DNA of 51,440 nucleotides from Candidatus Saccharimonadales bacterium (GTDB lineage: Bacteria > Patescibacteriota > Saccharimonadia > Saccharimonadales > UBA10212): assembly GCA_040879175.1 (NCBI GenBank), contig JBBDKW010000001.1, forward strand, positions 1-51,440, given 5' to 3'. Under the pieces are notes generated by a model. The model was not told where the DNA came from and did not search any database. It saw only the letters and a program-made list of their open reading frames with translations. Below, in pieces: positions 3,894-29,714 of this stretch (the stretch's first letter is position 1; every line of letters begins with the position of its first letter). The translations under genes and the position numbers were made by a program.

Positions 3894-3960
3894 CAATGTT
3901 TAATGCTCAATGATCAATATTCAGTGAATGATCAATGGGTAATGCTGCAATGTTTTAATG
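3894..3960. repeat. Heptamer-periodic array (CAATNNN), single arm
   Basis: caatgtt taatgct caatgat caatatt cagtgaa tgat caatggg taatgct. Confidence 0.8.
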
Positions 3961-3966
3961 GTCGTT

Positions 3967-3996
3967 AAAAGCGAAAATCCGACCTGTCGGCCGGAT
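3967..3996 (-). terminator. Terminator-like hairpin in the nusA leader
   Basis: Minus strand ATCCGGCC-GACA-GGTCGGAT followed by TTTCGCTTTT, just downstream of TATAAT at 4007-4012. Confidence 0.5.
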
Positions 3997-4035
3997 AACT
4001 ACTCTGATTATACGCCTTAAGGCTGATAAATCAAG

Positions 4036-5247
4036 CTATATGGTGAATTGGCCTTTGTTGTAAATAACTAGCTGTTTACCGTTTTCCAAAGTTGCAGTGA
4101 CGGCGCGGTCGGTGGTGGAAATCATATCAACGTGGATACTTGAGCTGTTATAGCCTAGTTTGGCAAACAGGTTTTTATCTAGCTTTGTAACATCACCGCT
4201 GTATGTATCGTGATACGCCTCGCCGAGTGCGATATGAGTGTTGCCGAAAGGCCCGCCTATATTCTCGTCGAATAACGTTTCTGCCATTATTTTTGTAATT
4301 CTGGACAGTCGTTTATCTGTAAGAGAGAATTCCCCAACCTGCGCTGCTGATCCATCAGCTTCTAGCATGGCCCTTAGCAGTTCTTTGTTTTTTGTAGCAG
4401 AATACTTAACAACTCGCCCTCCTTCAAAATGCAGCTCAATTCCTTCGACTTTGGGACCATAGTAATAAAGCGGCTGGTTAAAACGTATCCAACCTTCTGT
4501 TCCGCGCCAGTCCGGTGATGTAAATACCTCAAAGCTTGGGATATTACGGCCTCCGCCACCCAGCCAACGACGTTTTTCACCAACAGTTATTTTAAGATCG
4601 ACATCCTTACCTTTAATGCGCAGATTCTTAATTTTCAAATCAGATAGTTTTTCAGCGACTCTTTCAACCTCGCTTGAGATTTTCCGCCATCTGGTTATTG
4701 GGTCTTTATAATCCAAGTAAGTTGCTTTAATTATCTGCTGCCAGTATTCTTCCAGAGATAACTCGGCTTTTTTAGCCATACTCGAGGTACCGTACAGGCC
4801 TAATGTCCAGCTATATTTACCCTGATTCTCTTTTGCGCGGAACCAATCCATCAAGGGTTTGGTAGTCTTTTGAACAAGCATTATTTTTTTGGGATCGACT
4901 TTATCTAGTTCATGAACGTCGTGGTCGGCAATCACCGCTATACGATGATCAACCTGTGCTACTAGGCCCCGATAATATTTATCAAGAAAGGCTGTCAACT
5001 GTTCATGGCTCGCGTTATCGTAAAAATACTTGGCTGCACCGCTCATATCGTCGCTTAGATTACTAATGATCAATCCACCGCTGTCGAGAATAACTTTTCT
5101 TAAACTCCTATAAAACGGCAAGGCTGAAAGCGGTGATTGCAAAAAAACGACATCTCCTTTTTTGAGACCTTTACCCCCGCCCAAGGCATAGTTGACTAAA
5201 ACTTTAGCATACTTCTCAAGGATTTTGGCGCTCGGCTGATAACTCAT
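4036..5247 (-). CDS. Aminopeptidase, M29 (AmpS/PepS) family
   Basis: NIPSFEVFTSP, LFDEN, HIALG and SSIHVDMI motifs. Confidence 0.9.
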   Translation of the reverse strand: MSYQPSAKILEKYAKVLVNYALGGGKGLKKGDVVFLQSPLSALPFYRSLRKVILDSGGLIISNLSDDMSGAAKYFYDNASHEQLTAFLDKYYRGLVAQVDHRIAVIADHDVHELDKVDPKKIMLVQKTTKPLMDWFRAKENQGKYSWTLGLYGTSSMAKKAELSLEEYWQQIIKATYLDYKDPITRWRKISSEVERVAEKLSDLKIKNLRIKGKDVDLKITVGEKRRWLGGGGRNIPSFEVFTSPDWRGTEGWIRFNQPLYYYGPKVEGIELHFEGGRVVKYSATKNKELLRAMLEADGSAAQVGEFSLTDKRLSRITKIMAETLFDENIGGPFGNTHIALGEAYHDTYSGDVTKLDKNLFAKLGYNSSSIHVDMISTTDRAVTATLENGKQLVIYNKGQFTI

Positions 5248-5262
5248 TAGATAGATTATACT

Positions 5263-5604
5263 CTAGTCGATCTCAACCAATTCGATAATCGCGTAATCCA
5301 GTCCCGAGACTTCGGCGGCAATAATGCGATAGTCACCGTCCCAATTATTTTGGGCATTCCAAAAGCGAGCGGCAAACTTTATTTGATTCAGTTTGTGCGA
5401 AGTAATGTACTCAAAACCCGAGCCGTGCAATTCACTAAGCCGGTATTTTACCTCAATAAAATAGATTATTTTATTGTTATTCGCGATAATGTCGATCTCA
5501 CACCAGCGTGTCCGCCAGTTCCTTCCTAAAATTTTGAATCCATTACTCGCTAAATAGCTCGCCACCGCAGCCTCGGCATTGTGGCCGGTGGCGGTCGTTC
5601 TCAT
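5263..5604 (-). CDS. yraN: YraN family (UPF0102) endonuclease-like protein
   Basis: G..AE, RNWR...EIDII, FIEVKYR; typical position after rplS-rnhB. Confidence 0.9.
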   Translation of the reverse strand: MRTTATGHNAEAAVASYLASNGFKILGRNWRTRWCEIDIIANNNKIIYFIEVKYRLSELHGSGFEYITSHKLNQIKFAARFWNAQNNWDGDYRIIAAEVSGLDYAIIELVEID

Positions 5605-6170
5605 CCGAATTGGTTAATTAACTTAGAGATTGGTGCGTAGGACGTTCTGTGTACAAACCTAATTACACCGAAAGAATTGATCGCTTCCCTATGCTCTACC
5701 GTTCCGTAGCCAACGTGCTTCTCGAATTTATAGGATGGATGCCTTTTAGCCAGCTCAGTCATAAAGCTATCTCGTGTAACTTTGGCGTAAATACTGGCCG
5801 CCGAAACGATTGGCACTAGATTGTCGGCATTAACCAAACAACTGGCGTTTCTAAACTTTTTAGGTATGTAGTTTACATTGCCGTCCATAATAATTTCTTC
5901 ATCTATCTGCGCCTTAATGCCGCGAAGGGCCCTTTTTATCCCGAGGCGCAGAGCTTTAGCTAACCCGAACCGGTCTATCTCGACCGCTTTCACCCAGCCT
6001 TCGCCAAATTGGCAGTTGGTAGTTAGTAGTTGGTAGATAGTCTCTCGCTTCGTCCTAGTTAAAAGCTTTGAGTCCTTGAGCCCATCAGGCAATTGCGATT
6101 TAGCACGGGCTGCGACTACCAAGATTGGTCCGGCCAAACACCCTCTCCCAACCTCATCTACCCCAACCAT
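5601..6170 (-). CDS. rnhB: Ribonuclease HII
   Basis: GVDEVGRG, DSKLL, AASIYAKVTRD, GYGT, HRTSY. Confidence 0.95.
   Translation of the reverse strand: MVGVDEVGRGCLAGPILVVAARAKSQLPDGLKDSKLLTRTKRETIYQLLTTNCQFGEGWVKAVEIDRFGLAKALRLGIKRALRGIKAQIDEEIIMDGNVNYIPKKFRNASCLVNADNLVPIVSAASIYAKVTRDSFMTELAKRHPSYKFEKHVGYGTVEHREAINSFGVIRFVHRTSYAPISKLINQFG
6010..6037. repeat. Intragenic heptamer array in rnhB
   Basis: tggcagt tggtagt tagtagt tggtaga; encodes YQLLTTNCQ. Confidence 0.6.
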
Positions 6171-6173
6171 AAG

Positions 6174-6206
6174 ATTTAGAATATAGAATTTTGAATCAAG
6201 AATCTA
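6174..6206. repeat. Heptamer-periodic array upstream of rnhB
   Basis: atttaga atataga attttga atcaaga atcta. Confidence 0.7.
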
Positions 6207-6362
6207 GGCTGTCGCAAATTCAAGCGAGCCACAAAAATCTGAAGGACTTGAGAAAACAGATGAATTTGGTAGATGGATGTCGAATTAAGCCGCAACTTTG
6301 CCGAAGCTCCTCCTTAAGATACAAAGGGTGAGGCCGCTTGTCGTTGTTGCGGCGCGGCAGCC
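6207..6362. mobile_element. Candidate MITE-like or structured palindromic element
   Basis: Ends ggctgtcgc / gcggcagcc; internal inverted pairs caaattca/tgaatttg and gccgcaac/gttgcggc. Confidence 0.4.
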
Positions 6363-6380
6363 GTCGTTTGCAGATTCAAT

Positions 6381-6935
6381 CTAGCTTTTCGATTCGTCCT
6401 GAGGATTTTCGGTGGCGAGCTTCTTTTCGTGTTCGGCCAGCGCCTCTTCGGCTTTTACTTCCTCTTTGGCCCGTTTTTCGGCCTGTTTCTTTTCTTTCTC
6501 CTCGTGGGCCTTTTCGGCCTCTTCCTTCAGCTTTTCAGCCTCTGCTTCGGCTTCTTCATCGTGAATAATGTTGACCTTCTCTTTATCAAAATCTACACCC
6601 ATCAGGCGGGCGCTCTTGCCTGTCAGCTGACGCATATAAGTCAAATAGTTGCGGCGGACCTTTGAGCGCTTGGTAACCTCGACCTTTAAAACATTCGGCG
6701 AGTGGATAAAAAAGGTCTTTTCCACGCCAATGCCGCTGGCAATCCGCCGAACGGTAAAGTTTGAGGTGTGGCTGTTTTTGCGCGAAGTTCTAATAACTAG
6801 CCCTTCAAAGACCTGGATACGTTCTTTGCCGCGCTCGCGGATTTTTTGCGAGACTTTAACCGTATCACCGCTGCGCACATCGACAACGGCTTTTTTCTTG
6901 TACTGAGCCTCGATTTTGGCAATAACACTATCCAT
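6381..6935 (-). CDS. rplS: 50S ribosomal protein L19 with a charged C-terminal extension
   Basis: GDTVKV, ERIQVFEGLVI, FTVRRIASGIGVEKTF, KVRRNYLTYMR; E/K/A-rich tail of about 60 aa. Confidence 0.95.
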   Translation of the reverse strand: MDSVIAKIEAQYKKKAVVDVRSGDTVKVSQKIRERGKERIQVFEGLVIRTSRKNSHTSNFTVRRIASGIGVEKTFFIHSPNVLKVEVTKRSKVRRNYLTYMRQLTGKSARLMGVDFDKEKVNIIHDEEAEAEAEKLKEEAEKAHEEKEKKQAEKRAKEEVKAEEALAEHEKKLATENPQDESKS

Positions 6936-6964
6936 AAGACCAATGAATTTTACACTATAACCCT

Positions 6965-8563
6965 TTAACCGACAACCCTATAGACTTCTTCGATAGTCGT
7001 CAAGCCGGCAAGTGCTTTCAACACACCGTCTTGTTCCATTGTCTGCATACCGTCTCTGATGGCTTGGGCTTCGAGTATTTCAGTCGTTACCTCGTTCGGC
7101 GGCCGGCGCAACAGTTCTTGAACTCTGGGTGTCATTAATAGCTGTTCGCGGATGGGCAGCTGACCGCTGTAGCCAAACGGATTAGAAGCCGAGCTACCGG
7201 CCTTGTAGAGTGTTAGTCCCTCGAGATTGGGCTTTTGTACTTGAGGCGGTAGTTTGTCTATGACAATTTGTAGCTGCTTTTTTAGAGCCTCGTCGGGTTG
7301 GTAAGGCTGCTTAGTGGAATCATCGAGTCGTCTCACCAGTCTCTGGGCCATAACCAGGCGCATAGCGCTGGCAAATAGCGGATTGATGCCAACCATATCA
7401 AGCATTCTGCTTAAGGCTGCGGCCGCGCTGCTGGCGTGGAAGGTGGTTAATACCAAATGGCCGGTCAAAGCGCCTTGAAGCGCCGTTTTAGCGGTGTCTT
7501 TATCGCGGATTTCGCCCACCATCACTACATCGGGGTCGAGCCTAAGCACAGCCCGCAGTTTCTCGGCAAAACTCTCGGTCGCCAGCGAGCCGCGTACAGG
7601 TATTTGTACGACGCCAGGCATATTGTACTCAACCGGATCCTCAAGTGTAATTATCTTGCGTTCCGGCGTGTTAAGCGTGTTGAGAATCGAGTAAAGCGTA
7701 GTAGTTTTACCCGAGCCTGTCGGTCCGACAACGATTACCATTCCCGTCGGCCGCTTGATGATATCTTGTACGGCAGCCATTTCCGGCGGGCTCAAAGAGA
7801 GGTTTTCGAGTTTGAATAGTTCGAGTTTGAGGTTGAAGAGGCGCATCACTATGTCCATACCGTAAACGGTTGGCACGGTCTCGACACGCAAGTTAAGTGT
7901 CACTTCTTCGCCGGTGGCCATCTTATATTGCCGGCTGATGTGCCCCTGCTGGGCGTCTTCGGCGCTGGTCGAGACATTGGCAGCGCTGGCGATGGCGGCG
8001 GTTAAGTGGCCGTATTTTTCGTGGCTAACGTAGGCGATAGGGTGAAGCACGCCGTCAATCCTAAAGCGCACGCGGACATTTTCCCGTTGAGTCTCGAGGT
8101 GGATGTCGCTGGCTTTGAGTTTGTATGCCTGTTGGACGAGGTATGCCAGCATATCGTCCGGGCGAACCTCTTCGAGGGTCTTACTAACTGTACCGATAAT
8201 ATTCTGTTTTTCGGTTTCGGAAAGGGTTATGTCGTGATACTCCACCTGTTTCGGTGGGTCATAAAGCTGCATATATTCGCGGAAGCCGGCGTCCGAAATA
8301 AGCGAGAATTTGGTGATATGGTCGGTGAACCGGGCTTTGAGACGGTTTATCGTCTGTTGCGGCGTAGTAGTGGTTATGCCGAAGTGGATGTTGTGTTCAT
8401 CAGCGGTTAAAGGCACTCCCCGCAAAGCGTAGAGTTCTGGTGCCGTCAGGATGGTTTTATAAAGTTGTTTTTGCAGTTGCGAAGTGTCGATGTAGTTTAA
8501 GCCGAGGACCTGCGCCCGGCGCTGGGTCATTGTTTCTTCGTCTCGGCGCCCACCCTGATTCAT
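6965..8563 (-). CDS. Type IV pilus / T2SS assembly ATPase (PilB/GspE family)
   Basis: ASDIHLE, RFRIDGVL, GPTGSGKTTT, TLEDPVE, LRLDPDVVMVGEIRD, TGHLVLTTFH. Confidence 0.92.
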   Translation of the reverse strand: MNQGGRRDEETMTQRRAQVLGLNYIDTSQLQKQLYKTILTAPELYALRGVPLTADEHNIHFGITTTTPQQTINRLKARFTDHITKFSLISDAGFREYMQLYDPPKQVEYHDITLSETEKQNIIGTVSKTLEEVRPDDMLAYLVQQAYKLKASDIHLETQRENVRVRFRIDGVLHPIAYVSHEKYGHLTAAIASAANVSTSAEDAQQGHISRQYKMATGEEVTLNLRVETVPTVYGMDIVMRLFNLKLELFKLENLSLSPPEMAAVQDIIKRPTGMVIVVGPTGSGKTTTLYSILNTLNTPERKIITLEDPVEYNMPGVVQIPVRGSLATESFAEKLRAVLRLDPDVVMVGEIRDKDTAKTALQGALTGHLVLTTFHASSAAAALSRMLDMVGINPLFASAMRLVMAQRLVRRLDDSTKQPYQPDEALKKQLQIVIDKLPPQVQKPNLEGLTLYKAGSSASNPFGYSGQLPIREQLLMTPRVQELLRRPPNEVTTEILEAQAIRDGMQTMEQDGVLKALAGLTTIEEVYRVVG

Positions 8564-8725
8564 GCCCGGTAGTAGACTTTCGAGTCAGCTCGTCCTTGGC
8601 GAGCAATTATTATTCAACATCGATGCCATCATATCCTTGAAAGGGTTACACTTACAGGCAGTTAACAAGACGAGCTGTATTTTCAAGCTAAAGTTGAATA
8701 ATCTCGAAAGCTCACTACCGGGCAT
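8562..8725. other. Inverted-repeat-bounded structured element (MITE or cis-acting RNA) at the pilB start
   Basis: 23-bp terminal inverted repeat (20/23 matches, outer 12 perfect) plus internal 10-, 9- and 7-bp inverted pairs; lies between TATACT (8736-8741) and the pilB ATG. Confidence 0.75.
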
Positions 8726-8789
8726 ACTTAGAATCAGTATAAAGCATGAACGCTATCTGTGCGAGCGGTGATTGCGCTATAGTGACACC

Positions 8790-9296: not shown

Positions 9297-9307
9297 TCAT
9301 AAGCTGG

Positions 9308-10357: not shown

Positions 10358-10359
10358 GG

Positions 10360-13300: not shown

Positions 13301-13959
13301 CAAGTCACGACCGCTGGTATATCGAGCTCGTGGCTGAGTCGTAGAAGCTGCTCGTTCACCTTACCTTGTTCGTCCCAAACGCTGGGGTGCTCGGCGTGGC
13401 CGTGATCCTGAAGCTCAAGGTAATAGCGGTCGCCAAAGACATCCTTATACCAAGCGGCCGCCTTTTTGGCTTGCTCATATTGGCCGGATCGTAAAGCATC
13501 ACCGACCTCGCCCTGCATACAGCCGGAAAGCACGATTATTCCTTGGTTATACTTTTTGATTTTTTCGCGGTCTATTCTTGGGCGGTAGTAAAAACCTTGC
13601 AGGTTGGCGATTGATGAGAGGCGCATTAGATTCTGATACCCGGTGTTGTTAATCACCAACATAGTCAGGTGGTAAGCGGCACGGTCGTAAGCCGGATCTT
13701 TATCTTTGTGTGAGCGCGGAGCCACGTAGGCCTCCATGCCGATTATCGGTTTAACGCCTTTTTCTTTGGCGGCCTTATAAAACTCTACGGCACCACTCAT
13801 TAGTCCATGGTCGGTCATGGCTATTGAGCCCATCCCGAGTTCGGTAACCCTTTCCATAAGCGCCGGAACTTTGGTCAGACCATCCAGCAGTGAGTACTGC
13901 GTATGATTATGTAAGTGAACAAAATCACTCGGTTTAAGTCTTACCCCCGCGTTGGCCAT
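10360..13959 (-). CDS. dnaE: DNA polymerase III alpha subunit
   Basis: PHP domain HLHNHTQYSLLDG, GPGRGSAA, PDMDID, KIDFLGL, FNKVHS, OB fold; start could be 13959 or 13965. Confidence 0.97.
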   Translation of the reverse strand: MANAGVRLKPSDFVHLHNHTQYSLLDGLTKVPALMERVTELGMGSIAMTDHGLMSGAVEFYKAAKEKGVKPIIGMEAYVAPRSHKDKDPAYDRAAYHLTMLVINNTGYQNLMRLSSIANLQGFYYRPRIDREKIKKYNQGIIVLSGCMQGEVGDALRSGQYEQAKKAAAWYKDVFGDRYYLELQDHGHAEHPSVWDEQGKVNEQLLRLSHELDIPAVVTCDSHYLLREDQEAHEVLLCIQTGAFLDDSDRMSLKDFELHVADPKDIIKRWAKQHPELILNTKDIAERCNIMLELDKILIPKFPTPKGETEHSLLEKEVWQGLAWRYGDISRTKAAQLSITEAKKQLTAEVIERAKYELEVVNNMGFNGYFLIVADFINWGKDQGIVFGPGRGSAASSIMAYGLRITEIEPLRYDLLFERFLNPDRISMPDMDIDIQDNRRDEVINYCIEKYGRDRVANIVTFGQMAARNSVRDVARVLRVPYAEADRLAKMIPQPVQGRHTQLATHLQQVPDLKREYNENEKSRQVFDLAMRLEGTIRSHGVHAAGVVIAPDEIVKFVPLEVAQSGAVATQYQGTTIENDIGILKIDFLGLSNLTIIKNALRIVRKVYGKNIDIADIPLDDKKTFELLQKGETTGVFQLESAGMKRYLKQLKPTVFDDIIAMVALYRPGPMQWIEDFIARKHGLRNIEYLHPVMKSALENTYGVIVYQEQVMQISKEMCGFSGGQADTLRKAIGKKNPIVMAKLKKDFIEGAVKTVGADRKLMERFWRQLEEFAAYCFNKVHSACYGLIAYQTAYLKAHYPAAFMAALMTSDYDNIDRLAIEITECKHMGIEVLPPDINQSFHEFAVVPSKNEIRFGLDAIKNVGQGAVEEILQAREKLGGQFKSIEDFCKSVNVHIVNRKALESLIKSGAFDSLGDRSRLLNNVENILSLAQRLQKETISGQVDLFGGGGDDSATSLKMRWDEEVVPYSQSIQLSWERELLGLYLSRHPLEDYEKLLSEQAKQIGSLSAEMDGREVVVGGSVTAAREITTKNGSKMAFAKVVDLSGEIELIIFPKLYETQPELWIRDNVVLAKGRLTTRDRNDSETDDWKVIVDQARLLTPEDIGKTQQAFNHKTGEFGNSGSLKQRLFIRLENSSDQPLLMSLKDKLDSFRGDTEVVIVTGNLETKQVIKLPQTISVNEESLRALAAIFGSTNIVVK

Positions 13960-13975
13960 TACCATAATTATACGA

Positions 13976-14045
13976 AACTAGGAATTAGGAACTAGAAATT
14001 AGTTTTTAATACTACAGCTAATTCCTACTTGCTAGTTGCTAGCTT
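13976..14045. repeat. Inverted heptamer array (AA(C/T)TAGN ... CTANTTN)
   Basis: aactagg aattagg aactaga aattagt ... ctaattc ctacttg ctagttg ctagctt; the last unit contains the YtxH stop codon. Confidence 0.85.
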
Positions 14046-14449
14046 TTAAAATACTTGCTTAGATTATTTTTAGCTTGTTTGGCCTGCTTGATGGCCTTAT
14101 TCAAACCCGGGTCCTCAGCTTCACCGGCTTTAAAAGCTTTCAGAACGATTCCAGCCTTGTTTTTAGCGTCTTTGGCTGATACCACAGCCTCGTTAAACTC
14201 CTCACGCGCCTTGGCGCTTAGAGCGACGGTCTTGTCCTTGGCGTCTTTGATAAGTTCGTCGAGCTCGTCACGTAAATCCTGCAATTGGTCCACGCCCTCT
14301 TCTTTTAATTCCGAGGCTTTCTCAACAATATCTTCGCGTGTTTTTTTGCCACTTTTGGGTGCAGTTAAAATCCCCGCTAAGTAACCGAAGGCCCCGGCGA
14401 GCAAAGCGCCGACGGCGATCTTTCTCCCCGTGTGTTGATCCTTAACCAT
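14039..14449 (-). CDS. YtxH domain-containing protein
   Basis: GALLAGAFGYLAGILTAPKSGKKTR followed by a helical charged region. Confidence 0.85.
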   Translation of the reverse strand: MVKDQHTGRKIAVGALLAGAFGYLAGILTAPKSGKKTREDIVEKASELKEEGVDQLQDLRDELDELIKDAKDKTVALSAKAREEFNEAVVSAKDAKNKAGIVLKAFKAGEAEDPGLNKAIKQAKQAKNNLSKYFKS

Positions 14450-14472
14450 AATACGCTCCTTTCAGTCGCTTA

Positions 14473-14539
14473 AAATTCAAAATACAATTACCAAAATTCA
14501 AATGTTTTGAAGTTTGAACGTTGATGTTAGAGTTTTGCA
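14473..14539. repeat. Inverted heptamer array (CAAA / TTTG type)
   Basis: aaattca aaataca attacca aaattca ... ttttgaa gtttgaa cgttgat gttagag ttttgca. Confidence 0.8.
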
Positions 14540-14543
14540 TATA

Positions 14544-16260: not shown

Positions 16261-16269
16261 ATATTCCTC

Positions 16270-16363
16270 CAAAACTCAAAAACCAAAAACCAAAATTCAA
16301 AGCATTATAATTTGATATTTGCAGTTTATTTGAACTTATAAGTTTGAAGTTTGAAGTTTGCAT
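16270..16363. repeat. Inverted heptamer array with an 11-mer interruption
   Basis: caaaact caaaaac caaaaac caaaatt caaagca ... tttgata tttgcag ttta tttgaac ttataag tttgaag tttgaag tttgcat. Confidence 0.85.
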
Positions 16364-16770
16364 TATAGGGCTCCCAAATCTTGCAAACCTTGTTTGATGC
16401 CAGCCAAGGCGTTCTTGGCATCGTTCTTACGTAGCCGGACACTAGGTTCGTGTACCAAACGATTACGCAGTTTGTGGGCGTACCAAATTCCGTCATTGTT
16501 GCTTAGAGCCCGTTGGGCAGCCACCAGGCGTTCGCCCATTGTCTTACCTTTGTAGCCTTTTCTCTTCAGAGCCTCGTCGAGCAATTTATCGGCATCAATA
16601 ACTGCTAGCGCCATGCCCTCTGAAGTTTTAACTCGAGTCAGCAGCTCGGCCCATCTTTTTTCAAAATATCGGCGGTTGACCGGCTGAACGAGGCGTCGGC
16701 CAAAACGGCTAAGTAAAATCAGCACCGCTATTCCAAAAACGATGGCGCCGATAAGGAAAGCGGTTGTCAT
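16363..16770 (-). CDS. Membrane-anchored hypothetical protein with a HEPN-like RxxxxH motif
   Basis: N-terminal TM segment; AVIDADKLLD, TMGERL, KLRNRLVHE; ATGA-style overlap with the gatA stop. Confidence 0.8.
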   Translation of the reverse strand: MTTAFLIGAIVFGIAVLILLSRFGRRLVQPVNRRYFEKRWAELLTRVKTSEGMALAVIDADKLLDEALKRKGYKGKTMGERLVAAQRALSNNDGIWYAHKLRNRLVHEPSVRLRKNDAKNALAGIKQGLQDLGAL

Positions 16771-18194
16771 TTTAGCTCCTCAATTGCCTTCGAGATTGAC
16801 AGCAGTGTCCGGTCGGCCTTTTGCGGCGCGATTATCTGCAGGCCGATTGGCAACCCATCGGCTTCGCCGACGGGCAGGCTGATTGCCGGGTTGCCGGAAA
16901 TATTGGCGGCCACGGTCATTACGTCGCTAAGGTACATCTTGAGGGGGTCGTCTGTTCGCTCGCCGATTTTAAAGGCTGTATTTGGAGCAGTCGGTCCAAC
17001 CAAGAAATCAAACCGCTCAAATGCCTCTTTAAACTCGTTAATAATTTTGGTGCGTACTGTTTGAGCCTTTTTGTAATAAGCCTCGTAGTAGCCGCTTGAT
17101 AGGACGTAGGCGCCAATCATAATCCGCCGCTTGGCTTCGGCACCAAAACCCTCTTCGCGGCTAAGGAAGTAGCTGTCTTCAAGGGTCTTGGCTTCGGCAC
17201 TGCTGTGGCCATAGCGCTGGCCGTCATAACGAGCCAAATTACTACTGACCTCCGCCGGGCAGACGATGTAATAAACCGCCAGTGCCAATGGCAGGCTTGG
17301 CAGGCTGACCTCGTTAACTTGTGCTCCAGCTTGTCTGAATTTTTCAATGGCAGCTTCAATGGATTGTTTCACACCAGTGTCCAGACCCTCACTCATATAT
17401 TCACGAATAACCCCAATCTTGGTAGTTGGTAGGTGGTAGGTGGTAGTTGGTTGGTAGCCTTTTTCGTCTCGGTCGATGGTCGTGCTATCGAGTTCATCTT
17501 TTCCGGCCATTGCGTCGAGCACAAGAGCGGCGTCATCAACTGTTCGTGCCAGCGGGCCAATCACGTCGGTACTACTGGCCATAGCTACTACACCTGATCG
17601 CGAAACCAGCCCATACGTCGGTTTATAGCCGACAACACCGCAAAAACTGGCCGGCAGGCGGATTGAACCGCCAGTGTCGGTGCCGATGGCAAAAGGCACT
17701 GACTTCAGAGCTACAACTGCCGCCGAACCGCCAGAGCTACCGCCTGGCACGCGTGTCTTATCGTGTGGGTTTTTAGTCACAAAGAAGTCGCTGTTTTCGG
17801 TACTGCTGCCGTGCGCCCAGGCATCGAGGTTGGCTTTAGCTACACAAATGGCTCCGGCGGCTTCTAACCGTTCGATGGCTGTTGCCTGATATGGAGCCTC
17901 GAAATCTTTTAACATATTGGAGGCGGCCGTGGTTTTGCCACCCAGCGTCAGGAAATTATCCTTGGCCACGAACGGTACACCGGCCAGTGAGCCGATTTTT
18001 TCACCTGCGGCAACTTTAGAATCAATTTTGGCCGCCCCCTCTAGCGCTCGCCCTTTTGTATAGGAAATGATGGCATCGTATTCGGCGGCGGCTTCGAGGT
18101 TACTTATAGCTTCTTTAACCAGCTCTTTGGCGCTAAGCTCGCCACTTTGCACTTTGGCGGCAATATCGCTAATCGGTAGCTCAAGCGCGCCCAT
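16767..18194 (-). CDS. gatA: Glutamyl-tRNA(Gln) amidotransferase subunit A
   Basis: Amidase signature GGSSGGSAA, GTDTGGSIR, SNLARYDG, KRRIMIG. Confidence 0.97.
   Translation of the reverse strand: MGALELPISDIAAKVQSGELSAKELVKEAISNLEAAAEYDAIISYTKGRALEGAAKIDSKVAAGEKIGSLAGVPFVAKDNFLTLGGKTTAASNMLKDFEAPYQATAIERLEAAGAICVAKANLDAWAHGSSTENSDFFVTKNPHDKTRVPGGSSGGSAAVVALKSVPFAIGTDTGGSIRLPASFCGVVGYKPTYGLVSRSGVVAMASSTDVIGPLARTVDDAALVLDAMAGKDELDSTTIDRDEKGYQPTTTYHLPTTKIGVIREYMSEGLDTGVKQSIEAAIEKFRQAGAQVNEVSLPSLPLALAVYYIVCPAEVSSNLARYDGQRYGHSSAEAKTLEDSYFLSREEGFGAEAKRRIMIGAYVLSSGYYEAYYKKAQTVRTKIINEFKEAFERFDFLVGPTAPNTAFKIGERTDDPLKMYLSDVMTVAANISGNPAISLPVGEADGLPIGLQIIAPQKADRTLLSISKAIEELK
17420..17458. repeat. Intragenic heptamer array in gatA (39 bp, in frame)
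   Basis: tggtagt tggtagg tggtagg tggtagt tggt tggtagc; encodes YQPTTTYHLPTT. Confidence 0.85.
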
Positions 18195-20474: not shown

Positions 20475-20495
20475 TTATAAATTGTAACAAGCTTT

Positions 20496-21071: not shown

Positions 21072-21073
21072 TA

Positions 21074-22126: not shown

Positions 22127-22145
22127 CTAGGCCCTCCCGTGGAGG

Positions 22146-22240
22146 CAATGCTCAATTTACAATTATCAATTTTCAATAAATTAACAATTAACAATGATGC
22201 AAGGATTATTGGTAAATGGAAAATAAATGGTAAATGAAAT
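22146..22240. repeat. Heptamer array (CAATTNN) with a degenerate inverted arm
   Basis: caatgct caattta caattat caatttt caataaa ttaa caattaa caatgat; right arm attggta aatggaa ... aatggta aatg. Confidence 0.85.
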
Positions 22241-22251
22241 GACGCAGTCAT

Positions 22252-23262: not shown

Positions 23263-23291
23263 AATTCTTGAGCTAATTTTACCATAAGCGG

Positions 23292-24203: not shown

Positions 24204-24253
24204 ACCTTCTTTAGATTCTAGCCCCTTGTGCTTAACAATGCTAGGTTATGCGA

Positions 24254-24425: not shown

Positions 24426-24428
24426 GAG

Positions 24429-25409
24429 TCAGTGTTTGTGGTTAGTGTGATCGAGCAGTAGGTGATGGGCGGCCATAGCAACGTGGTCGGCGTCTAGGCC
24501 AAAGTGGCGTAATAGCTCTTCTGGTTGGCCGCTCTCGCCGAAACGGTCTTTCATACCGACTCTTATCATTGGCGTCGGTAATTTTTCCGATAGCAGCTCA
24601 GCGATGGCACCGCCCAAGCCGCCATTAATCTGCCCTTCTTCGGCTGTTACGGCGTGTCGCGTTTTTCTAGCACTGTGAAGAATGGTTGTTTCATCAAGCG
24701 GCTTGATAGTTGGCACGTGTATAACTTCGGCATCAACGCCGTCCTTAGCTAGAGTCTTAGCAGCTTCCAGAGCTTGATAGGTCATTGTGCCAGTCGTAAT
24801 AAGGCTGACGTCGATTCCTTCTTTAAAAACATACGCTTTACCGATCTCGAACGGTGTGTTTTCGGTAGTAAAAACAGGTGTGGCTTCGCGCGCCAGGCGC
24901 ATATAGTTAGGTTGCTTATCGGCGGCCATGGCTATCGTTGCTTTGGCAGCTTCGATACTATCAGCCGGCGCAATGACAACCATATTTGGTAGCGCCCGCA
25001 TCAGCGCTAAGTCTTCGAGCATCTGGTGGGTGGCACCGTCCGGACCAACGCTAACTCCGGCGTGCGAGCCGACTATCTTAACCGGACGGTCGTTCAGGGC
25101 GATGGTGGTCCGGATTTGTTCCCAGTTGCGGCCCGGACTAAAGGCGGCGTAGGAGCTGACAAACGGGATCTTGCCCATGGCCGCCATCCCAGCTCCGACA
25201 GTTACCAAATTCTGCTCGGCTACACCAACTTCCACGTATCTTTCAGGAAAAGCTTCGGCAAAAAAGTGCATATTGGTCGATTCAGTCAAATCGGCACAGA
25301 TTGCCACAATATTTTCCCAGCGCTTACCGGCTTCCAAAAGCCCCTTGCCAAAACCTTTGCGAATCGGCTCCATGGTATCCCAGCTGTGCGCCAAATGCAC
25401 CTCAGGCAT
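24429..25409 (-). CDS. Transketolase, C-terminal (pyrimidine-binding) subunit
   Basis: GVAEQN, GPDGATHQ, FGESG. Confidence 0.92.
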   Translation of the reverse strand: MPEVHLAHSWDTMEPIRKGFGKGLLEAGKRWENIVAICADLTESTNMHFFAEAFPERYVEVGVAEQNLVTVGAGMAAMGKIPFVSSYAAFSPGRNWEQIRTTIALNDRPVKIVGSHAGVSVGPDGATHQMLEDLALMRALPNMVVIAPADSIEAAKATIAMAADKQPNYMRLAREATPVFTTENTPFEIGKAYVFKEGIDVSLITTGTMTYQALEAAKTLAKDGVDAEVIHVPTIKPLDETTILHSARKTRHAVTAEEGQINGGLGGAIAELLSEKLPTPMIRVGMKDRFGESGQPEELLRHFGLDADHVAMAAHHLLLDHTNHKH

Positions 25410-25427
25410 CGAAGACTCCCTTCGATG

Positions 25428-25540
25428 CAGTTTTCAATTTACAATTTACAATTTTCAATAAATTAGCAATTAACAATTTACAGCTGATGGCTGATGGCTG
25501 TGAATTTGTTGTGAATTGAGAGCTGTAAGCTGTGAATTTG
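25428..25540. repeat. Complete two-armed heptamer array
   Basis: cagtttt caattta caattta caatttt caataaa ttag caattaa caattta / tgatggc tgatggc tgtgaat ttgt tgtgaat tgagagc tgtaagc tgtgaat. Confidence 0.9.
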
Positions 25541-25547
25541 CCAATCA

Positions 25548-26414
25548 TTACTCGTGCTCCGATCGGATTTTGCCGCCCAAAGTACGAAGTTCTTTAATGG
25601 CCTTGACTGCCTGTTCGTGGTTGGGCGGCGAGCCGTGCCAGTGGAAATCATACTCCATAAAATCAACACCTTTGCCGGGAACAGTGTGGGCAATAATCAT
25701 TACTGGTTTCTCAACTATGGCCTTAGCCATATTGCAGGCGTCAATAATCGCTTCGATGTCGTTGCCGTCAATTTCCAGCACATGCCAGCCAAACGCTTCC
25801 CACTTATCACGGAGGTTTTCCAGCGGCATTACAGTCTCGGTCGGACCATCAATTTGGATATTGTTGCGGTCGGTAATGGCGATGATGTTATTGAGCTTGT
25901 ACTTGGCGGCAAACATAGCGCCTTCCCAGGTGTTGCCTTCGTCTTGTTCACCATCGCTCATTACGCAGTAAACCCAGCGGTGCTGGGTTTTGTCCATACG
26001 TAGAGCCATAGCCATTCCGGCCGCTTGGCTCAGACCTGAGCCGAGAGGCCCGCTAGTGGTTTCCAAACCAGGTAATCTTAGCCTTTCAGGATGCCCTTGA
26101 AGCCGCGAACCTAATTTACGTAGTGTCATCAGTTCTTTTTTGTCAAAGTAGCCGGCGTGGGCCATCACTACGTAACGCACCGGCGTACAATGGCCGTTTG
26201 AAAGAATCAAAATGTCTCTCTCGGCCCAATCTGGGTTTTTAGGGTCGTGCTTCAAAACGTTAAAGTATAGTGCCGTGAAAACATCGGTGAGGCCTAACGG
26301 CCCAGCCGAATGGCCGCTGCCGGCGTGCTCGAGCGTTTTAATAAGATCGATTCTGATTTCATTGGCTTTTTTCTCTAATGCCGGCAAAGAATAGTGTTTC
26401 TGTTGTACAGCCAT
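25548..26414 (-). CDS. Transketolase, N-terminal (TPP-binding) subunit
   Basis: GSGHSAG, LSNGH, LQGHP, SDGEQDEG TPP motif, GKGV. Confidence 0.92.
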   Translation of the reverse strand: MAVQQKHYSLPALEKKANEIRIDLIKTLEHAGSGHSAGPLGLTDVFTALYFNVLKHDPKNPDWAERDILILSNGHCTPVRYVVMAHAGYFDKKELMTLRKLGSRLQGHPERLRLPGLETTSGPLGSGLSQAAGMAMALRMDKTQHRWVYCVMSDGEQDEGNTWEGAMFAAKYKLNNIIAITDRNNIQIDGPTETVMPLENLRDKWEAFGWHVLEIDGNDIEAIIDACNMAKAIVEKPVMIIAHTVPGKGVDFMEYDFHWHGSPPNHEQAVKAIKELRTLGGKIRSEHE

Positions 26415-26454
26415 TTCGCTAATGATTATAGCGAAAAAACCTTCGATTTTCAGG

Positions 26455-26492
26455 AATTAGCAAATAGCAATTAGTAATTAGCTAGTTCCTAG
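26455..26492. repeat. Short heptamer array (AATTAGC)
   Basis: aattagc aaatagc aattagt aattagc tagttcc tag; abuts the rpe stop. Confidence 0.7.
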
Positions 26493-27151
26493 GTCGTACC
26501 GGTTTCTTCAGCGATACGTTCCAATGCCCTGTACGCTCTTTCCGGATCGTAGGAATTCTGGATAAAGCCGCCGACGTTCAGCACATCGACACCGCCGAAT
26601 ACCAGCTCAGCAACGTTCTGATCGCCAATCCCGCCATCCCAACCGATTTCCAGTTCCGGTTTTCTCTGCTTTAATATCTTAGCCTTTTCCAACAAACTGA
26701 GATCTGCTTGTCCGCCGAATTTACCTAAATCACCGCTGAAAATCAACACGTGGTCAATGTCGTCCAAGGCTGAAAAAATTTTCTCCGGGACTGTCAGGGA
26801 AAGGAGAGCCACTCCGAGCTTAACCGAATGATTGCGACAAAAATCGGCAACTTGGTCGAAGTCTCCCTCGGCTTCGGCGTGCACGATAATCAAATGCGGC
26901 TTGTGCTGTAAGATTTTTTGGACGGCCGTCAGCGGATTTTGGTACATCAAGTGAAAATCAGCCAAAAAACCGACAGGCCACCAGGCTTCTTCCGGAGTAA
27001 CCGTCTTGTGTGGTGCAAAGATCCCATCTGTTAGATCAATTTGGATACGGCGAGCAAAATGAGCCACATTCTGTATTTGCTTGTGATAATCATCCTTATC
27101 GGCGGCCAAAATCGCCGGGCAGATAATGGGTTTCTTAGCTGCCAAGTCCAT
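26489..27151 (-). CDS. rpe: Ribulose-phosphate 3-epimerase
   Basis: PAILA, IDLTDG, DFHLM, VHAE, WDGG; lies in a pentose-phosphate cluster. Confidence 0.85.
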   Translation of the reverse strand: MDLAAKKPIICPAILAADKDDYHKQIQNVAHFARRIQIDLTDGIFAPHKTVTPEEAWWPVGFLADFHLMYQNPLTAVQKILQHKPHLIIVHAEAEGDFDQVADFCRNHSVKLGVALLSLTVPEKIFSALDDIDHVLIFSGDLGKFGGQADLSLLEKAKILKQRKPELEIGWDGGIGDQNVAELVFGGVDVLNVGGFIQNSYDPERAYRALERIAEETGTT

Positions 27152-27632
27152 TTATTTTACCGATTCGCCGCTGGTGGCGGTCTTCCTGGCTGAATGGTGT
27201 TCCTAGCCACAGTTTTATAACCGATTTCATATCTTCTACTGTTATGAACCGAGCAGCCAGACTCAACATATTGGAATCATTGTGCTGGCGGCTAAGGCGA
27301 ACAATCTCATACGGATCGTGGCTTGTACGCCCGGCGGCATCTACCACCTTTCTTGGAACGGCCGGTCCGTAAAACACAACGCAGCGTATGCTTTTGATTT
27401 TGTTGGCCGCGATGGCCTCACCTTGTCCTGAACCACCAAGGACGATTCCCCGCTCGCACTCACCGACGGCCACGGCCTTAGCCGCAGGGATAATGAAATC
27501 TGGGTAGTCGTCATTGGGGTTGAGGTTTTTGGGTCCAAAATTCTTAACTTCGTATCCTAATGACTCAAGGTAGGATGACAGTTCCTTTAGCTGTTCAAGT
27601 CCTGCGTGGTCAGATGCCAAGGCGATATTCAT
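27135..27632 (-). CDS. rpiB: Ribose-5-phosphate isomerase B
   Basis: ASDHAG, DDYPD, GGSGQGEAIAANK, RQHNDSN, RHQRR. Confidence 0.92.
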   Translation of the reverse strand: MNIALASDHAGLEQLKELSSYLESLGYEVKNFGPKNLNPNDDYPDFIIPAAKAVAVGECERGIVLGGSGQGEAIAANKIKSIRCVVFYGPAVPRKVVDAAGRTSHDPYEIVRLSRQHNDSNMLSLAARFITVEDMKSVIKLWLGTPFSQEDRHQRRIGKINGLGS

Positions 27633-27634
27633 AG

Positions 27635-29011
27635 TCAAAAACGATGGACGCCGTCGATATTGGTGGCATCAGGCGGGAGTGGATGTTTGGATTGGTCGCC
27701 ATCAATAATATAGCCAGCCCCGCTTGTATCTTCGCCGACGGCTGATTTGTCGCCGTCTTCGGCTGGCAGTGGTTCTTTTTCTTTTGCTTCAAGGCTGGGG
27801 ACGGATGTTTCTAATAAGTCCTTGTGCTCATTACCGGTCGCTTCAGGAGGTGGTAAAAGAGGTTCATCGGGCGGCTCGGTGATATCGATTTTTTCTTCTT
27901 TAGACTCTGCAGCTTTCTCATCTCTGTGATGCTGGTCAGCGTGTTTGGCTTCAACGTCTTTAAGTTCTTCCTTTTTATCTTCTTTCTCGGGTTCGGAGCC
28001 GCTGTGTAAGAGGTGTGCGACATCAGCCGTCAGCTCGACCAGGCGGTTGCTGTAGCCCCACTCGTTATCGTACCAAGCCACTACTCGCACTAAATTACTG
28101 CCGACAACTGCTGTTAGCTTCAAGTCAACGATTGCCGAGTGGCTGTTGCCAATAAAATCGCTGCTCACCAGCTCTTCCTCCGTAACATCCAAAATGCCTT
28201 GGAAATATGGGTCGGCGGCAGCTTTTTTCAGAGCTTCGTTAACTTCTTCAATCGACACGCCGCGCTTGGTAACAACTGCAAAATCGGCCAAAGAAACCAC
28301 CGGTATCGGCACCCTTACGGATAAGCCACCAAAAATATCTTCCAGAGCCGGTAGAGCTTTGGCTGCGGCTTTAGTAGCGCCGGTAGATGTTGGAATTAAA
28401 TTGGTGGCGGCATTACGAGCCCGGCGCAGGTCTTTATGTGGCGCGTCCTGCAGGCGCTGGTCCTGTGTATAACCATGCATTGTAGTCATTAGAGCTTTTT
28501 CAATGCCGAAGTTAGCTTCCAAAACAGCCATCACGGGCGTGATGCACACAGTTGTGCAGCTGGCACCGCTGAGGATATCTCCAGCCTCAGATAAATTATC
28601 ATCATTTACACCAATTACTATGGTCTTGGCGCCATCACCGTCCGCCGGCGCAGAAATCACAACCTTCTTGGCGCCAGCGTCAATATGGGCCCTGGCCTTG
28701 GCCGGATCGGTAAAAAGCCCGGTAGACTCGATTACTACATCGACTCCTAAGTCTTTCCACGGCAGCTTGGCTGGATCTTTTTCAGAGAGTACTTTTATCT
28801 TTTGGCCTTGAACGACGATACTTTGCTCGTTAGATGAAACATCGTGCTGATAGGCACCGAAGTTGCTGTCGTGCTCTAGAAGATGCGCCAATGTTTTAGT
28901 GTCGGTAAGGTCATTAATGGCAACGATTTCCAGATCCGGCCGCTCAAAGGCAATTTTAAAAGCATTGCGGCCAATTCGTCCAAAGCCGTTTATCGCCACT
29001 TTTGTTTTCAT
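27635..29011 (-). CDS. gap: Type I glyceraldehyde-3-phosphate dehydrogenase with a C-terminal extension of about 120 aa
   Basis: INGFGRIGR, ASCTTVC, WYDNEWGYS, then an acidic/Pro-rich tail. Confidence 0.95.
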   Translation of the reverse strand: MKTKVAINGFGRIGRNAFKIAFERPDLEIVAINDLTDTKTLAHLLEHDSNFGAYQHDVSSNEQSIVVQGQKIKVLSEKDPAKLPWKDLGVDVVIESTGLFTDPAKARAHIDAGAKKVVISAPADGDGAKTIVIGVNDDNLSEAGDILSGASCTTVCITPVMAVLEANFGIEKALMTTMHGYTQDQRLQDAPHKDLRRARNAATNLIPTSTGATKAAAKALPALEDIFGGLSVRVPIPVVSLADFAVVTKRGVSIEEVNEALKKAAADPYFQGILDVTEEELVSSDFIGNSHSAIVDLKLTAVVGSNLVRVVAWYDNEWGYSNRLVELTADVAHLLHSGSEPEKEDKKEELKDVEAKHADQHHRDEKAAESKEEKIDITEPPDEPLLPPPEATGNEHKDLLETSVPSLEAKEKEPLPAEDGDKSAVGEDTSGAGYIIDGDQSKHPLPPDATNIDGVHRF

Positions 29012-29056
29012 CTATATCCCACCATATAATCTGAGCTTAATTGTATGGCTTTATGG

Positions 29057-29599
29057 TTAGGCTTTCAACCCAGCACTTTGTGCACGTTCTATTGATTCGG
29101 CTATGACTCTCTTGGCTTCTTCAATACCGCTCCAGCCTAGAACCTTAGTGCTCCCAGGTTTGGATAGGTCCTTGTAGTGAGCAAAGTGGTGCTCAACTTT
29201 CTCCTTCCAGCGTTCGCCCAAATCTTCTAAGGATTTGATTGAGTCACCGCTGTCACGGTCGTCGGCCGGCACAACGATGATTTTGTGGTCCATCTCACCG
29301 TCGTCTTCGAAATTGAGAATGCCAATAATTCTGCCCTTCAGCCACACACCGGTGCCGACCGGCTGTGAGGTTACTATCAACGTGTCGAGCTCGTCACCAT
29401 CATCATCAAGCGTCTGCGGAATGAATCCGTAATTCACCGGCTTGGCAAAAATCGCCGGTTCCACCCTGTCCAACGTAAATGCTGCCCGCTGGCGGTCCCA
29501 TTCGATTTTCATTATCGAGCCTTCCGGAATCTCGACAACGGTGTTAACCTCGCCGTTCTGGTAGTCGCCGGGTTCTAGAACTTTATTAAAATCAGGCAT
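29057..29599 (-). CDS. ppa: Inorganic pyrophosphatase (family I)
   Basis: VEIP, LDR, NYGFIPQTL, DGDELD, HFAHYK; likely start ATG 29599. Confidence 0.93.
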   Translation of the reverse strand: MPDFNKVLEPGDYQNGEVNTVVEIPEGSIMKIEWDRQRAAFTLDRVEPAIFAKPVNYGFIPQTLDDDGDELDTLIVTSQPVGTGVWLKGRIIGILNFEDDGEMDHKIIVVPADDRDSGDSIKSLEDLGERWKEKVEHHFAHYKDLSKPGSTKVLGWSGIEEAKRVIAESIERAQSAGLKA

Positions 29600-29620
29600 C
29601 AAACGCTCCCTTTGGTCGCT

Positions 29621-29714
29621 CAAAAAACAAAAAACAAAAATTAAAGAACAAATATTTGATGTTTGAACTTTTCAGTTTATTTGAATTTTGAATTTTGAGG
29701 TTTGAAGTTTTCAT
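29621..29714. repeat. Inverted heptamer array with an 11-mer interruption
   Basis: caaaaaa caaaaaa caaaaat taaagaa caaata ... tttgatg tttgaac ttttcag ttta tttgaat tttgaat tttgagg tttgaag ttttcat. Confidence 0.85.

Follow-up and report, generated by a model that had tools for sequence, protein, structure and literature searches.

Period-7 arrays in a small Patescibacteria-type genome are probably the arms of insertion elements of the 23S rRNA intervening-sequence type

The window analyzed here, positions 1 to 51,440 of contig C1 (JBBDKW010000001.1) from a Candidatus Saccharimonadales bacterium, carries arrays of degenerate 7-nt units between and within its genes, some as single arms and some as two inverted arms, and raises the question of what such arrays are and how they reached these positions. 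We propose that they are probably the arms of small insertion elements of the 23S rRNA intervening sequence (IVS) type, the window holding copies without an open reading frame (ORF). The source genome (G000 in our genome set) is represented by a 549-kb, 18-contig assembly with ~49% G+C and 81% completeness; its size, its gene content and its relatives of 0.5-1 Mb point to a small bacterium of the Patescibacteria or candidate phyla radiation (CPR) type. The genes of the window are housekeeping genes, nearly all on the minus strand, and include a clpB-like gene, nusA, the genes for RNase HII and ribosomal protein L19, dnaE, gatCAB and uvrB, as well as a split transketolase, rpe, rpiB, gap and ppa. 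Scanning of the window with Rfam at gathering thresholds and with ARAGORN yielded no RNA family and no tRNA, respectively.

In the source genome, Tandem Repeats Finder reported period 7 in 110 and period 14 in 30 of 279 rows. Within the window, 13 period-7 and 6 period-14 rows among 33 span positions 6009-29710, and no period-7 row lies beyond 29710. We also scanned the genome by a sliding 21-position comparison at different lags, with thresholds of at least 17/21 (strict) and at least 15/21 (array calls). With the strict threshold, lag 7 yielded 54 regions and lag 14 yielded 26, compared with 0-3 for each other lag from 4 to 15, and five local shuffles gave 0-1 region apiece. At the lower threshold, 101 arrays were called at lag 7, compared with 3-10 at lags 4, 5, 8, 10, 11 and 13 (8, 4, 7, 4, 10 and 3, respectively) and with 22, 25 and 17 at the codon-related lags 6, 9 and 12. 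A chance origin of the period-7 arrays is excluded. ORFs occupy ~92% of the genome, yet 69 of the 101 arrays are intergenic on a crude ORF map. A refined split assigns 66 arrays to intergenic space, 7 to positions beside four-helix-bundle genes, 3 to the 23S rRNA gene, 7 to gene edges and 18 to the interior of ORFs.

The arms follow a common register. Using a method based on position weight matrices, we parsed 109 arms genome-wide and obtained 452 steps of 7 nt and 79 other steps. Among the latter, 26 steps of 11 nt and 19 of 4 nt show one and the same +4 break, differently parsed; the rest are 16 steps of 8 nt and 2-4 each of 5, 6, 9, 10, 12, 13 and 14 nt. Read from its outer end inward, a typical arm consists of 4 heptamers, one 11-mer and 2-3 heptamers, and in two-arm elements the long side (~4 units) is outermost in both arms. 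This arrangement was found in the window (16268/16308, 22146, 25431 and 29655) and elsewhere in the genome (C3:16650, C9:9495, C12:1097/1165, C13:7968/8028, C14:9083, C16:11798/11858, C17:28237 and C18:22394). An earlier note on this DNA had described the 11-mer register in six arms of the window, and all six conform: those at 3894, 16311, 22146, 25428 and 29655, together with the arm at 25485, for which inspection of the minus strand by eye gave 3 units, TTCACAACAAA and 3 units, the pattern of the parsed arm C12:1097. The +4 break makes up 45 of the 79 irregular steps, and the register is real. The suggestion of the same note that spacing is selected rather than sequence has to be refined: between the two arms of an element the unit cores are kept complementary, while the 2-3 variable positions barely are.

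The gene that goes with the arrays encodes a four-helix-bundle protein of family PF05635. Four such genes are present in the source genome (C10:633-950, C3:5855-6169, C13:6565-6864 and C5:31254-31541), and all four are flanked by inverted heptamer arrays. The C10 protein belongs to TIGR02436 (four helix bundle protein; E 3e-34), and among solved structures XCC0516 (entry 2gsc, which contains five chains) is nearest to it, with E 8e-21. Adding the relatives brings the set to 44 PF05635 ORFs (43 unique), of which 40 are adjoined by an array, in 28 cases on both sides; the association that the earlier note had mentioned for other genomes holds in this group. The consensus unit upstream of a gene matches the reverse complement of its downstream unit at 5.21 of 7 positions, compared with 3.71 ± 0.17 for permuted partners (maximum 4.36 in 2000 permutations) and 3.39 in direct orientation. 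Units are element-specific in the subfamily with the NIAEG motif, and the CA(A/T)T type accounts for 13 of the 14 unique cases in the GANY subfamily. In complete copies the start codon lies in or beside the upstream arm. The four-helix-bundle genes are co-directional with their neighbors at 28 of 30 flanks, which fits a dependence on host transcription, though most genes of these genomes share one direction in any case.

Array density follows the gene among relatives. Across 27 related genomes, with 19-140 kb sampled in each, at least 8.8 arrays per 100 kb were found in 8 of 13 genomes with a strong PF05635 hit and in none of the 14 others (maximum 5.0). The Mann-Whitney test gives p 5e-4, or 7e-3 for a 10-vs-10 set picked before counting and 2e-3 with two weak-hit genomes moved to the group with the gene, p-values that, like the one below, overstate the case because related genomes are not independent. 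Of 301 genomes sampled from the phylum, 172 contain PF05635. The first 40 kb of contig 1 were examined in twenty further genomes: 136 arrays were counted in 400 kb for the ten genomes with several gene copies and 15 in 336 kb for the ten without a hit (p 0.0018), 11 of these 15 belonging to one genome, G053. Both samples show density tracking the gene, with exceptions in both directions that are taken up below.

The same register extends far beyond this phylum. Scanning one genome per species for four CAAW-N3 units, an 11-mer and two further units, we found at least 120 stretches that carry it, distributed over Bacteroidota, Desulfobacterota, Nitrospirota, Omnitrophota, Planctomycetota, Acidobacteriota, Cyanobacteria, numerous lineages of the CPR and further groups; one of these stretches (L110) lies in a 23S rRNA gene. 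Among the matches listed, 76 of 135 arms (67 unique) are accompanied, at a distance of up to 900 nt, by an inverted arm of the same register, with loops mostly of 3-100 nt and a second group of 256-486 nt; nine elements have a loop of at least 120 nt, five of these contain an ORF of 118-125 codons, and all five ORFs are PF05635 above the curated cut-off. Approached from the gene, Calothrix brevissima NIES-22 has inverted heptamer arrays at 5 of its 7 PF05635 genes (for example GGGTGTA upstream and CTACACC downstream), a cyanobacterial metagenome-assembled genome has them at 2 of 2, and both PF05635 genes of Desulfosarcina widdelii have an array on at least one side. At the loci of these three genomes, 20 arrays lie in the 8.9 kb beside the genes compared with 7 in the other 27.5 kb. 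The cyanobacterial short tandemly repeated repetitive (STRR) sequences, which the earlier note had named as an analogue, are in this way supported as such by an association, not by a function.

In the window, the scan at the lower threshold called arrays starting at 3894, 6004, 6169, 13973, 14014, 16266, 16328, 17414, 22146, 25423, 26449, 29617 and 29676. The array at 14473 falls under this threshold and was seen in the sequence, within a 91-nt insertion missing from the relative G005. All nine intergenic and both intragenic sites that the earlier note had listed are present, their units vary from copy to copy, and every array lies among or within co-oriented genes of the minus strand; its remark that none follows 30 kb agrees with the last period-7 row of Tandem Repeats Finder. 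The elements are as follows.

3894-3963: single arm of CAATGNN units (4 heptamers, the 11-mer CAGTGAATGAT, 2 heptamers, then 8-mers), abutting the nusA start region.

6004-6043: intragenic array of the TTGGTAG type in the RNase HII gene (rnhB), residues ~43-56; length unchanged relative to related genomes.

6169-6207: single arm of TAGAATN units, ending at the RNase HII start codon.

13973-14049: two-arm element with GGAATTA and GCTAATT units, directly 5' of a TATAAT that precedes the dnaE ATG by 9 nt.

14453-14543: degenerate two-arm element with CAAAATN and TTTGAAN units and a ribosome-binding-site module.

16266-16369: two-arm element with CAAAAAC and TTTGAAG units and a TATAAT at its center; right arm, from the outer end, 4 units, 11-mer, 2 units.

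17414-17459: intragenic TTGGTAG array in gatA, residues 246-261, a variable linker of the same length in relatives.

22127-22251: two-arm element with four CAATTNN units, the 11-mer CAATAAATTAA and two further units, opposed by GTAAATG units with an 11-mer of their own; flanked by small hairpins.

25410-25547: two-arm element between the split transketolase genes, with a ribosome-binding site and a start hairpin; left arm 4 units, CAATAAATTAG, 2 units; right arm (minus strand) 3 units, TTCACAACAAA, 3 units.

26449-26492: single arm of AATTAGC units, 5' of a TATAAT that precedes the tktN ATG by 14 nt.

29617-29714: two-arm element with CAAAAAN and TTTGAAN units; right arm, from the outer end, 4 units, 11-mer, 2 units.

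The window has no PF05635 gene. Three of its elements (those at 3897, 22127 and 25410) have matches in congeners to arms of copies that do bear the ORF. In blastn comparisons, the arm at 3894 matches both arms of the ORF-bearing elements L245/L191, L246 and C5:31254 of the source genome (E 4e-7 to 9e-6); the element at 22127 matches an arm of the ORF-bearing element L236; and that at 25410 matches both arms of L239 and one arm each of L236 and L235 (E 6e-11 to 2e-7). The intragenic array at 6004 resembles, with 90.6% identity over 32 nt, the array C10:209-248 that adjoins the C10 four-helix-bundle gene.

The elements also resemble one another across the genome. An all-against-all blastn comparison of 84 elements of the source genome revealed families in which whole two-arm elements are shared with 70-90% identity over 60-140 nt, the similarity reaching into the flanking small hairpins and the ribosome-binding-site module. 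Copies of family A end with a small AAAAATGC...GCATTTTT hairpin, and families A, B and D have arms in common with the four-helix-bundle elements of C3, C5 and C10. The element at 16266 belongs with C16:11798 (80% over 85 nt) and with the one at 29620 (76% over 96 nt). A 34-nt stretch of the arm at 25431 recurs nearly unchanged, as judged by eye, in G016, which belongs to another genus, at a locus that is not related. The arrays are dispersed copies, not microsatellites.

The window is collinear with five congeners, and alignment of the orthologous junctions showed that close relatives have no insertion at six of its sites (16273, 22127, 25410, 26415, 29624 and, for part of its length, 14450). 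At empty sites the genes abut or overlap as ATGA, and the insertions in the source genome are clean, ~75-135 nt long and located at stop/start junctions. The element at 14453 is a 91-nt insertion missing in G005, G001, G006 and G004; the site of the 16266 element is an ATGA gene overlap in relatives; the arm at 26449 is missing in all five aligned relatives; and the site at 29617 is empty in G006 and G004. At 22127 no insertion is present in G001, G004, G006 or the closest relative, G005, but G003 has one, whose downstream arm is ~90% identical (an estimate from the alignment). The transketolase N- and C-terminal genes (24429-26414) overlap or abut in four congeners; in the source genome and G003 they are separated by different insertions that have in common the last ~20 nt alone, the ribosome-binding-site module. 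The dnaE junction at 13973 is different in every relative. The matches to ORF-bearing copies, the empty sites and the arrays beside PF05635 genes support the idea of the earlier note that the window copies could be empty elements. Its preference for a protein-recognized lattice or a non-autonomous mobile module over slippage repeats or terminators is supported too, though a protein that reads the lattice is hypothetical.

Contigs of three samples (X1-X3), all of them weak evidence, cover the stretch, with breaks at 25436-25479 and a back-joint from 25535 to 22152 that is typical of repeats. One X2 contig of depth 3.9 skips 26433-26482 (48 nt including the AATTAGC array), so that members of the population may differ in whether they have this segment.

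Copies of the same families lie in ribosomal RNA. The 23S rRNA gene of the source genome (C6:3079-7511, L194) measures 4433 nt against a model of 2925 positions. A two-arm element without a gene occupies C6:3874-3987 in a hairpin loop at model position 583/584, which we take to be the classical helix-25 IVS site, and another lies at C6:5155-5223 in a loop at model positions ~1761-1766. In blast comparisons these copies fall into the same families as the intergenic ones: the element at C6:3874 matches that at C9:9495 with E 1e-19 and the window arm at 3895 with E 2.5e-7. The same gene contains further insertions of ~35 nt near model position 371 and of ~156 nt, against 31 in the model, near position 1960.

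From these observations a complete element would comprise an arm of ~6-7 heptamers, a PF05635/TIGR02436 gene of ~120 codons and an inverted second arm with the reverse-complement core. The window copies would be gene-less derivatives, either two arms with a short loop or one arm, inserted co-directionally at the stop/start junctions of housekeeping operons, often supplying the downstream gene with a ribosome-binding site. Once transcribed, the arms would form a long stem in which core helices of 4-5 bp alternate with internal loops of 2-3 nt, the two 11-mers pairing as one continuous helix. By analogy with rRNA intervening sequences, which are excised by RNase III, this stem may be a substrate of RNase III; it is reported that tandem heptamers precede the S23p ORF in the Coxiella IVS and that RNase III cuts at the first repeat (PMC4990558). 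If the stem is cleaved, neighboring operon cistrons would therefore be cut or insulated from each other, and since the start codon lies in or next to the upstream arm, the stem would occlude the start of the four-helix-bundle gene. Geometry and association further suggest that the four-helix-bundle protein itself may act on the 7-nt lattice.

The RNase III gene of the source genome (C7:18935-19324) is preceded by a two-arm heptamer element at C7:18769-18861 (L262). If the arms are RNase III substrates, the mRNA of RNase III would be under the control of its own enzyme. A comparable self-control of RNase III mRNA is known for the E. coli rnc leader.

Predicted folds speak for such stems only in part. 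Of the 56 cross-phylum elements with short loops, 95% (among the matches listed) fold with z below -2 (median -4.2), values that largely restate the inverted cores because the mononucleotide-shuffle control destroys these cores. In the long stems so predicted the 4-5-nt cores are paired, with a small internal loop at each set of 2-3 variable positions and one longer helix where the 11-mers of both arms meet. For the 13973 element RNAfold gave z of -3.0 and -3.6. At 25428-25540, where the earlier note had found the two arms poorly complementary, z is +0.4 and -2.1 for the left arm region, which agrees with that description.

Several observations weigh against the proposed insertion elements. 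The cross-phylum z-scores mostly repeat the inverted cores, as just stated, and the elements of the source genome range in RNAfold z from -5.5 to +1.4, several of those in the window being near 0. Pairing at the variable positions is 0.469 compared with 0.426 ± 0.010 in permutations, and 0.531 in register compared with 0.46 when shifted by one unit. Transcription of the arms, their fold and their cleavage are inferred by analogy. Mobility is likewise inferred from distribution alone, because no target-site duplication was found and neither a transposase (Y1_Tnp) nor a reverse transcriptase (RVT_1) in the 81%-complete assembly: the six filled/empty junctions show no consistent duplication, their two sides being similar in ribosome-binding-site and ATG-like motifs alone (9 of 16 identities at 14450). 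The 18 arrays inside ORFs receive no explanation from an insertion model, and the two intragenic arrays of the window replace sequence relative to congeners without a change in length. The association with the gene has gaps on both sides: 4 of the 44 PF05635 ORFs and 2 of the 7 Calothrix genes have no flanking array; G252, G033 and G038 have the gene and 0 arrays in 40 kb; G021 has arrays without the gene; and G053 has 27.5 arrays per 100 kb with PF05635 not found. The non-independence of related genomes, noted above, also tells against the strength of the co-occurrence.

The variable positions bring up a first alternative, in which the arrays are a double-stranded DNA lattice for a host protein, a promoter upstream element or operator of phased 4-5-bp cores, and neither fold as RNA nor move. 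That the variable positions of the two arms hardly covary and that several elements of the source genome fold no better than shuffles would be expected under it; moreover, arrays lie just 5' of start codons, and a TATAAT is found 9-14 nt before an ATG or at the element center in three cases (13966, 26415 and 16273). Such a lattice is at odds with the presence of the same families in 23S rRNA hairpin loops, where a promoter would be senseless, with the absence of any spacer from the same housekeeping junctions in close relatives, and with the complementary cores kept between the arms of each element. In addition, because unit sequences differ among sites, one DNA-binding protein cannot read all arrays. 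We consider this explanation unlikely. A promoter role was set aside as a candidate function, AT-rich arrays easily yielding TATAAT hexamers and elements being present also in rRNA.

A second alternative accepts mobility and assigns it to a conventional enzyme acting in trans, a transposase of the HUH/RAYT type (RAYT, transposase associated with repetitive extragenic palindromic, REP, sequences) or another, the arrays being miniature transposable elements and the four-helix-bundle gene a passenger. Inverted arms, ORF-less copies that far outnumber ORF-bearing ones and a patchy distribution among close relatives are what such elements would show, and genes for Y1_Tnp (PF01797) occur in 11 of 41 related genomes, including the array-rich G016. 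Against it, Y1_Tnp was not found in the source genome (81% complete) or in any of the other six genomes of its genus, including the array-rich G003 and G005; no target-site duplication is visible at the six filled/empty junctions; and the gene between arms is PF05635 alone, in 5 of 5 cross-phylum cases (among the matches listed) and 4 of 4 in the source genome. Mobilization by an unlinked conventional enzyme is accordingly judged about as improbable as the DNA lattice, and RAYT/HUH mobilization was rejected as the principal explanation, PF01797 not being found in the genus. Copying mediated by a reverse transcriptase was likewise left without support, as RVT_1 was not found in the 81%-complete assembly.

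Neutral microsatellites, arising in place by polymerase slippage that favors 7-nt units, are a third alternative and a very improbable one. Units are indeed more alike within an array than among arrays. The array at 6169/6171 is orthologous in the source genome, G005 and G001, and all its units have changed in concert (ATTCT vs ACCCT, source genome vs G001). The number of units differs among Coxiella strains (PMC4990558), and slippage is cited for the bacterial excess of heptameric repeats (PMC4692102). Slippage does not account for the fixed register, in which irregular steps are mostly the +4 break and which recurs in many phyla, for the inverted pairing of arms, or for whole two-arm elements 70-90% identical at distant loci and an arm near-identical between genera. 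In close relatives, whose polymerase genes are the same, array density is 0-2.5 per 100 kb. No indels were seen within arrays in the contigs of samples X1-X3, a weak point, as contigs hide rare variants. Intrinsic terminators or generic mRNA-stabilizing hairpins evolved in place, finally, would suit the intergenic position between co-directional genes and the small hairpin at the end of family A copies, but AT-rich mismatched stems without a consistent T tract, copies inside rRNA and array-free junctions in close relatives make them the least credible explanation of all.

The IVS-type insertion elements can be placed in a wider frame, which we offer tentatively and consider rather doubtful. 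Intergenic heptamer repeats, including STRR and the general bacterial excess of 7-nt simple repeats, might be the footprint of one cross-phylum class of selfish elements whose sole gene encodes a pentameric four-helix-bundle protein. This protein would bind the 7-nt lattice of its own arms, each subunit contacting one unit, and a full turn around the ring would correspond to 4 heptamers and the 11-mer. It would then promote copying, without a transposase, into transcribed sites that tolerate hairpins, such as rRNA loops and operon junctions.

Parts of this picture are known already, from earlier papers: S23p-encoding IVSs, heptameric repeats in the IVS of Coxiella, rRNA insertions of CPR bacteria that contain IVP ORFs, and STRR-like repeats. 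IVSs encoding the S23p (23S_rRNA_IVP) protein are found in Leptospira, Coxiella, Brucella, relatives of Xanthomonas and the rRNA insertions of CPR bacteria. The elements described here share with them the PF05635/TIGR02436 protein, encoded by an optional ORF between inverted terminal arms, and the location of two copies within 23S rRNA hairpin loops, and share with the Coxiella IVS the tandem heptamers before the ORF (PMC4990558). Unlike IVSs, the window copies lie in protein-coding operons without an ORF, and the arms are composed wholly of heptamers in the fixed register of 4, an 11-mer and 2-3. Neither element-specific units nor mass dispersal (~100 arrays in 549 kb) is described in the accessible parts of the IVS papers. 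ORFs of 23S_rRNA_IVP occur in insertions in CPR rRNA genes in a report whose main text, in its accessible part, does not contain the word "repeat" (PMC11270868).

Similar parallels and differences exist for other repeats and proteins. STRR sequences are hosted by (heterocystous) cyanobacteria, with the unit sequences STRR1-3. They are tandem heptanucleotides dispersed at ~100 per genome, comparable to the 101 arrays counted here, whereas the present host has a small genome of Patescibacteria type and different units. Together with GGGAATC in Xanthomonas, GGGGAYT in Nostoc and TAACTGA in Beggiatoaceae, they form mostly intergenic tandem arrays in many copies, often near start codons and sometimes as inverted pairs (PMC4692102, PMC4679880). 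Each of these surveys follows a single heptamer, whereas many unit types coexist in the source genome, and their accessible parts mention neither the 11-mer register nor a link to a four-helix-bundle gene (PMC4692102, PMC4679880). REP/REPIN elements with RAYT transposases and, in general, miniature inverted-repeat transposable elements (MITEs) are, like the elements here, short, palindromic, extragenic, dispersed, non-autonomous, more numerous than the gene-bearing form and patchy, and MITEs, again like them, derive from a longer gene-bearing element with the same ends. They differ in that the REP/REPIN-RAYT system has an HUH/Y1 transposase, not found in this genus, that a target-site duplication as in MITEs was not seen at the six junctions, and that the arms here are periodic arrays, with one associated gene alone, which encodes no known transposase.

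Diversity-generating retroelements encode Avd, a barrel of five subunits that binds nucleic acid. Its fold is related to that of the four-helix-bundle proteins found here, which match the model NF033474 (DivGenRetAVD) with E 9.5e-8, below the cut-off: the score is 32 against an 80-bit cut-off, RVT_1 was not found in the source genome, and no template/variable repeats are present.

Catalogs of heptamer repeats go back to 1990 for cyanobacteria and were later extended to Xanthomonas, Beggiatoaceae and Bacteroidetes, and a general excess of 7-nt simple repeats has reportedly been noted since 2007. We know of no accepted origin or function for these bacterial repeats, and the four-helix-bundle protein of 23S IVSs, a large family, has to our knowledge no function assigned. 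The present reading would join the two puzzles, the repeats being the arms and the protein gene the cargo, with gene-less copies colonizing rRNA loops and the gene junctions of operons in reduced genomes, which have little space between genes. It predicts that the four-helix-bundle protein binds the 7-nt lattice, that the arms are RNase III sites at which operon transcripts are cut, and that array density follows the PF05635 gene across bacteria. For the annotation of Patescibacteria, ~100 arrays per 0.55 Mb would shape gene starts, ribosome-binding sites and assembly breaks. Our search of a limited collection of main texts returned no paper joining heptameric repeats with the four-helix-bundle family and no description of ORF-less copies at operon junctions or of the register of 4, an 11-mer and 2-3.

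A number of further features were observed at the window elements and their genes. At the downstream end of the 22127 element, a hairpin CCTCC-ACG-GGAGG (22127-22145) pairs the ribosome-binding site itself, and at the downstream end of the 25410 element a hairpin CATCGAAG-GGAGT-CTTCGATG (25410-25430) places the ribosome-binding site in its loop and the ATG in its stem. A TATAAT precedes the ATG by 9-14 nt, without a ribosome-binding site, at dnaE (13950-13975) and tktN (26415-26440); it is conserved before dnaE in all five aligned relatives and before tktN in the source genome, G001 and G006, which suggests that the transcripts of both genes are leaderless or near-leaderless. The intragenic arrays in rnhB and gatA look like replacements or ancient in-frame arrays rather than recent insertions. 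At the corresponding segment, GatA of G005 has a 7-residue repeat of its own (GYRLSAN GYRLNN). The L19 gene has 184 codons against a Pfam L19 domain of 111 positions, and its 3' part contains a 21-nt tandem repeat of 2.3 copies (6510-6558). Finally, the ORF for glyceraldehyde-3-phosphate dehydrogenase (GAPDH; 27635-29011) has 458 codons; its two Pfam domains end at residue 314, leaving a C-terminal extension of ~140 residues without an assigned family.

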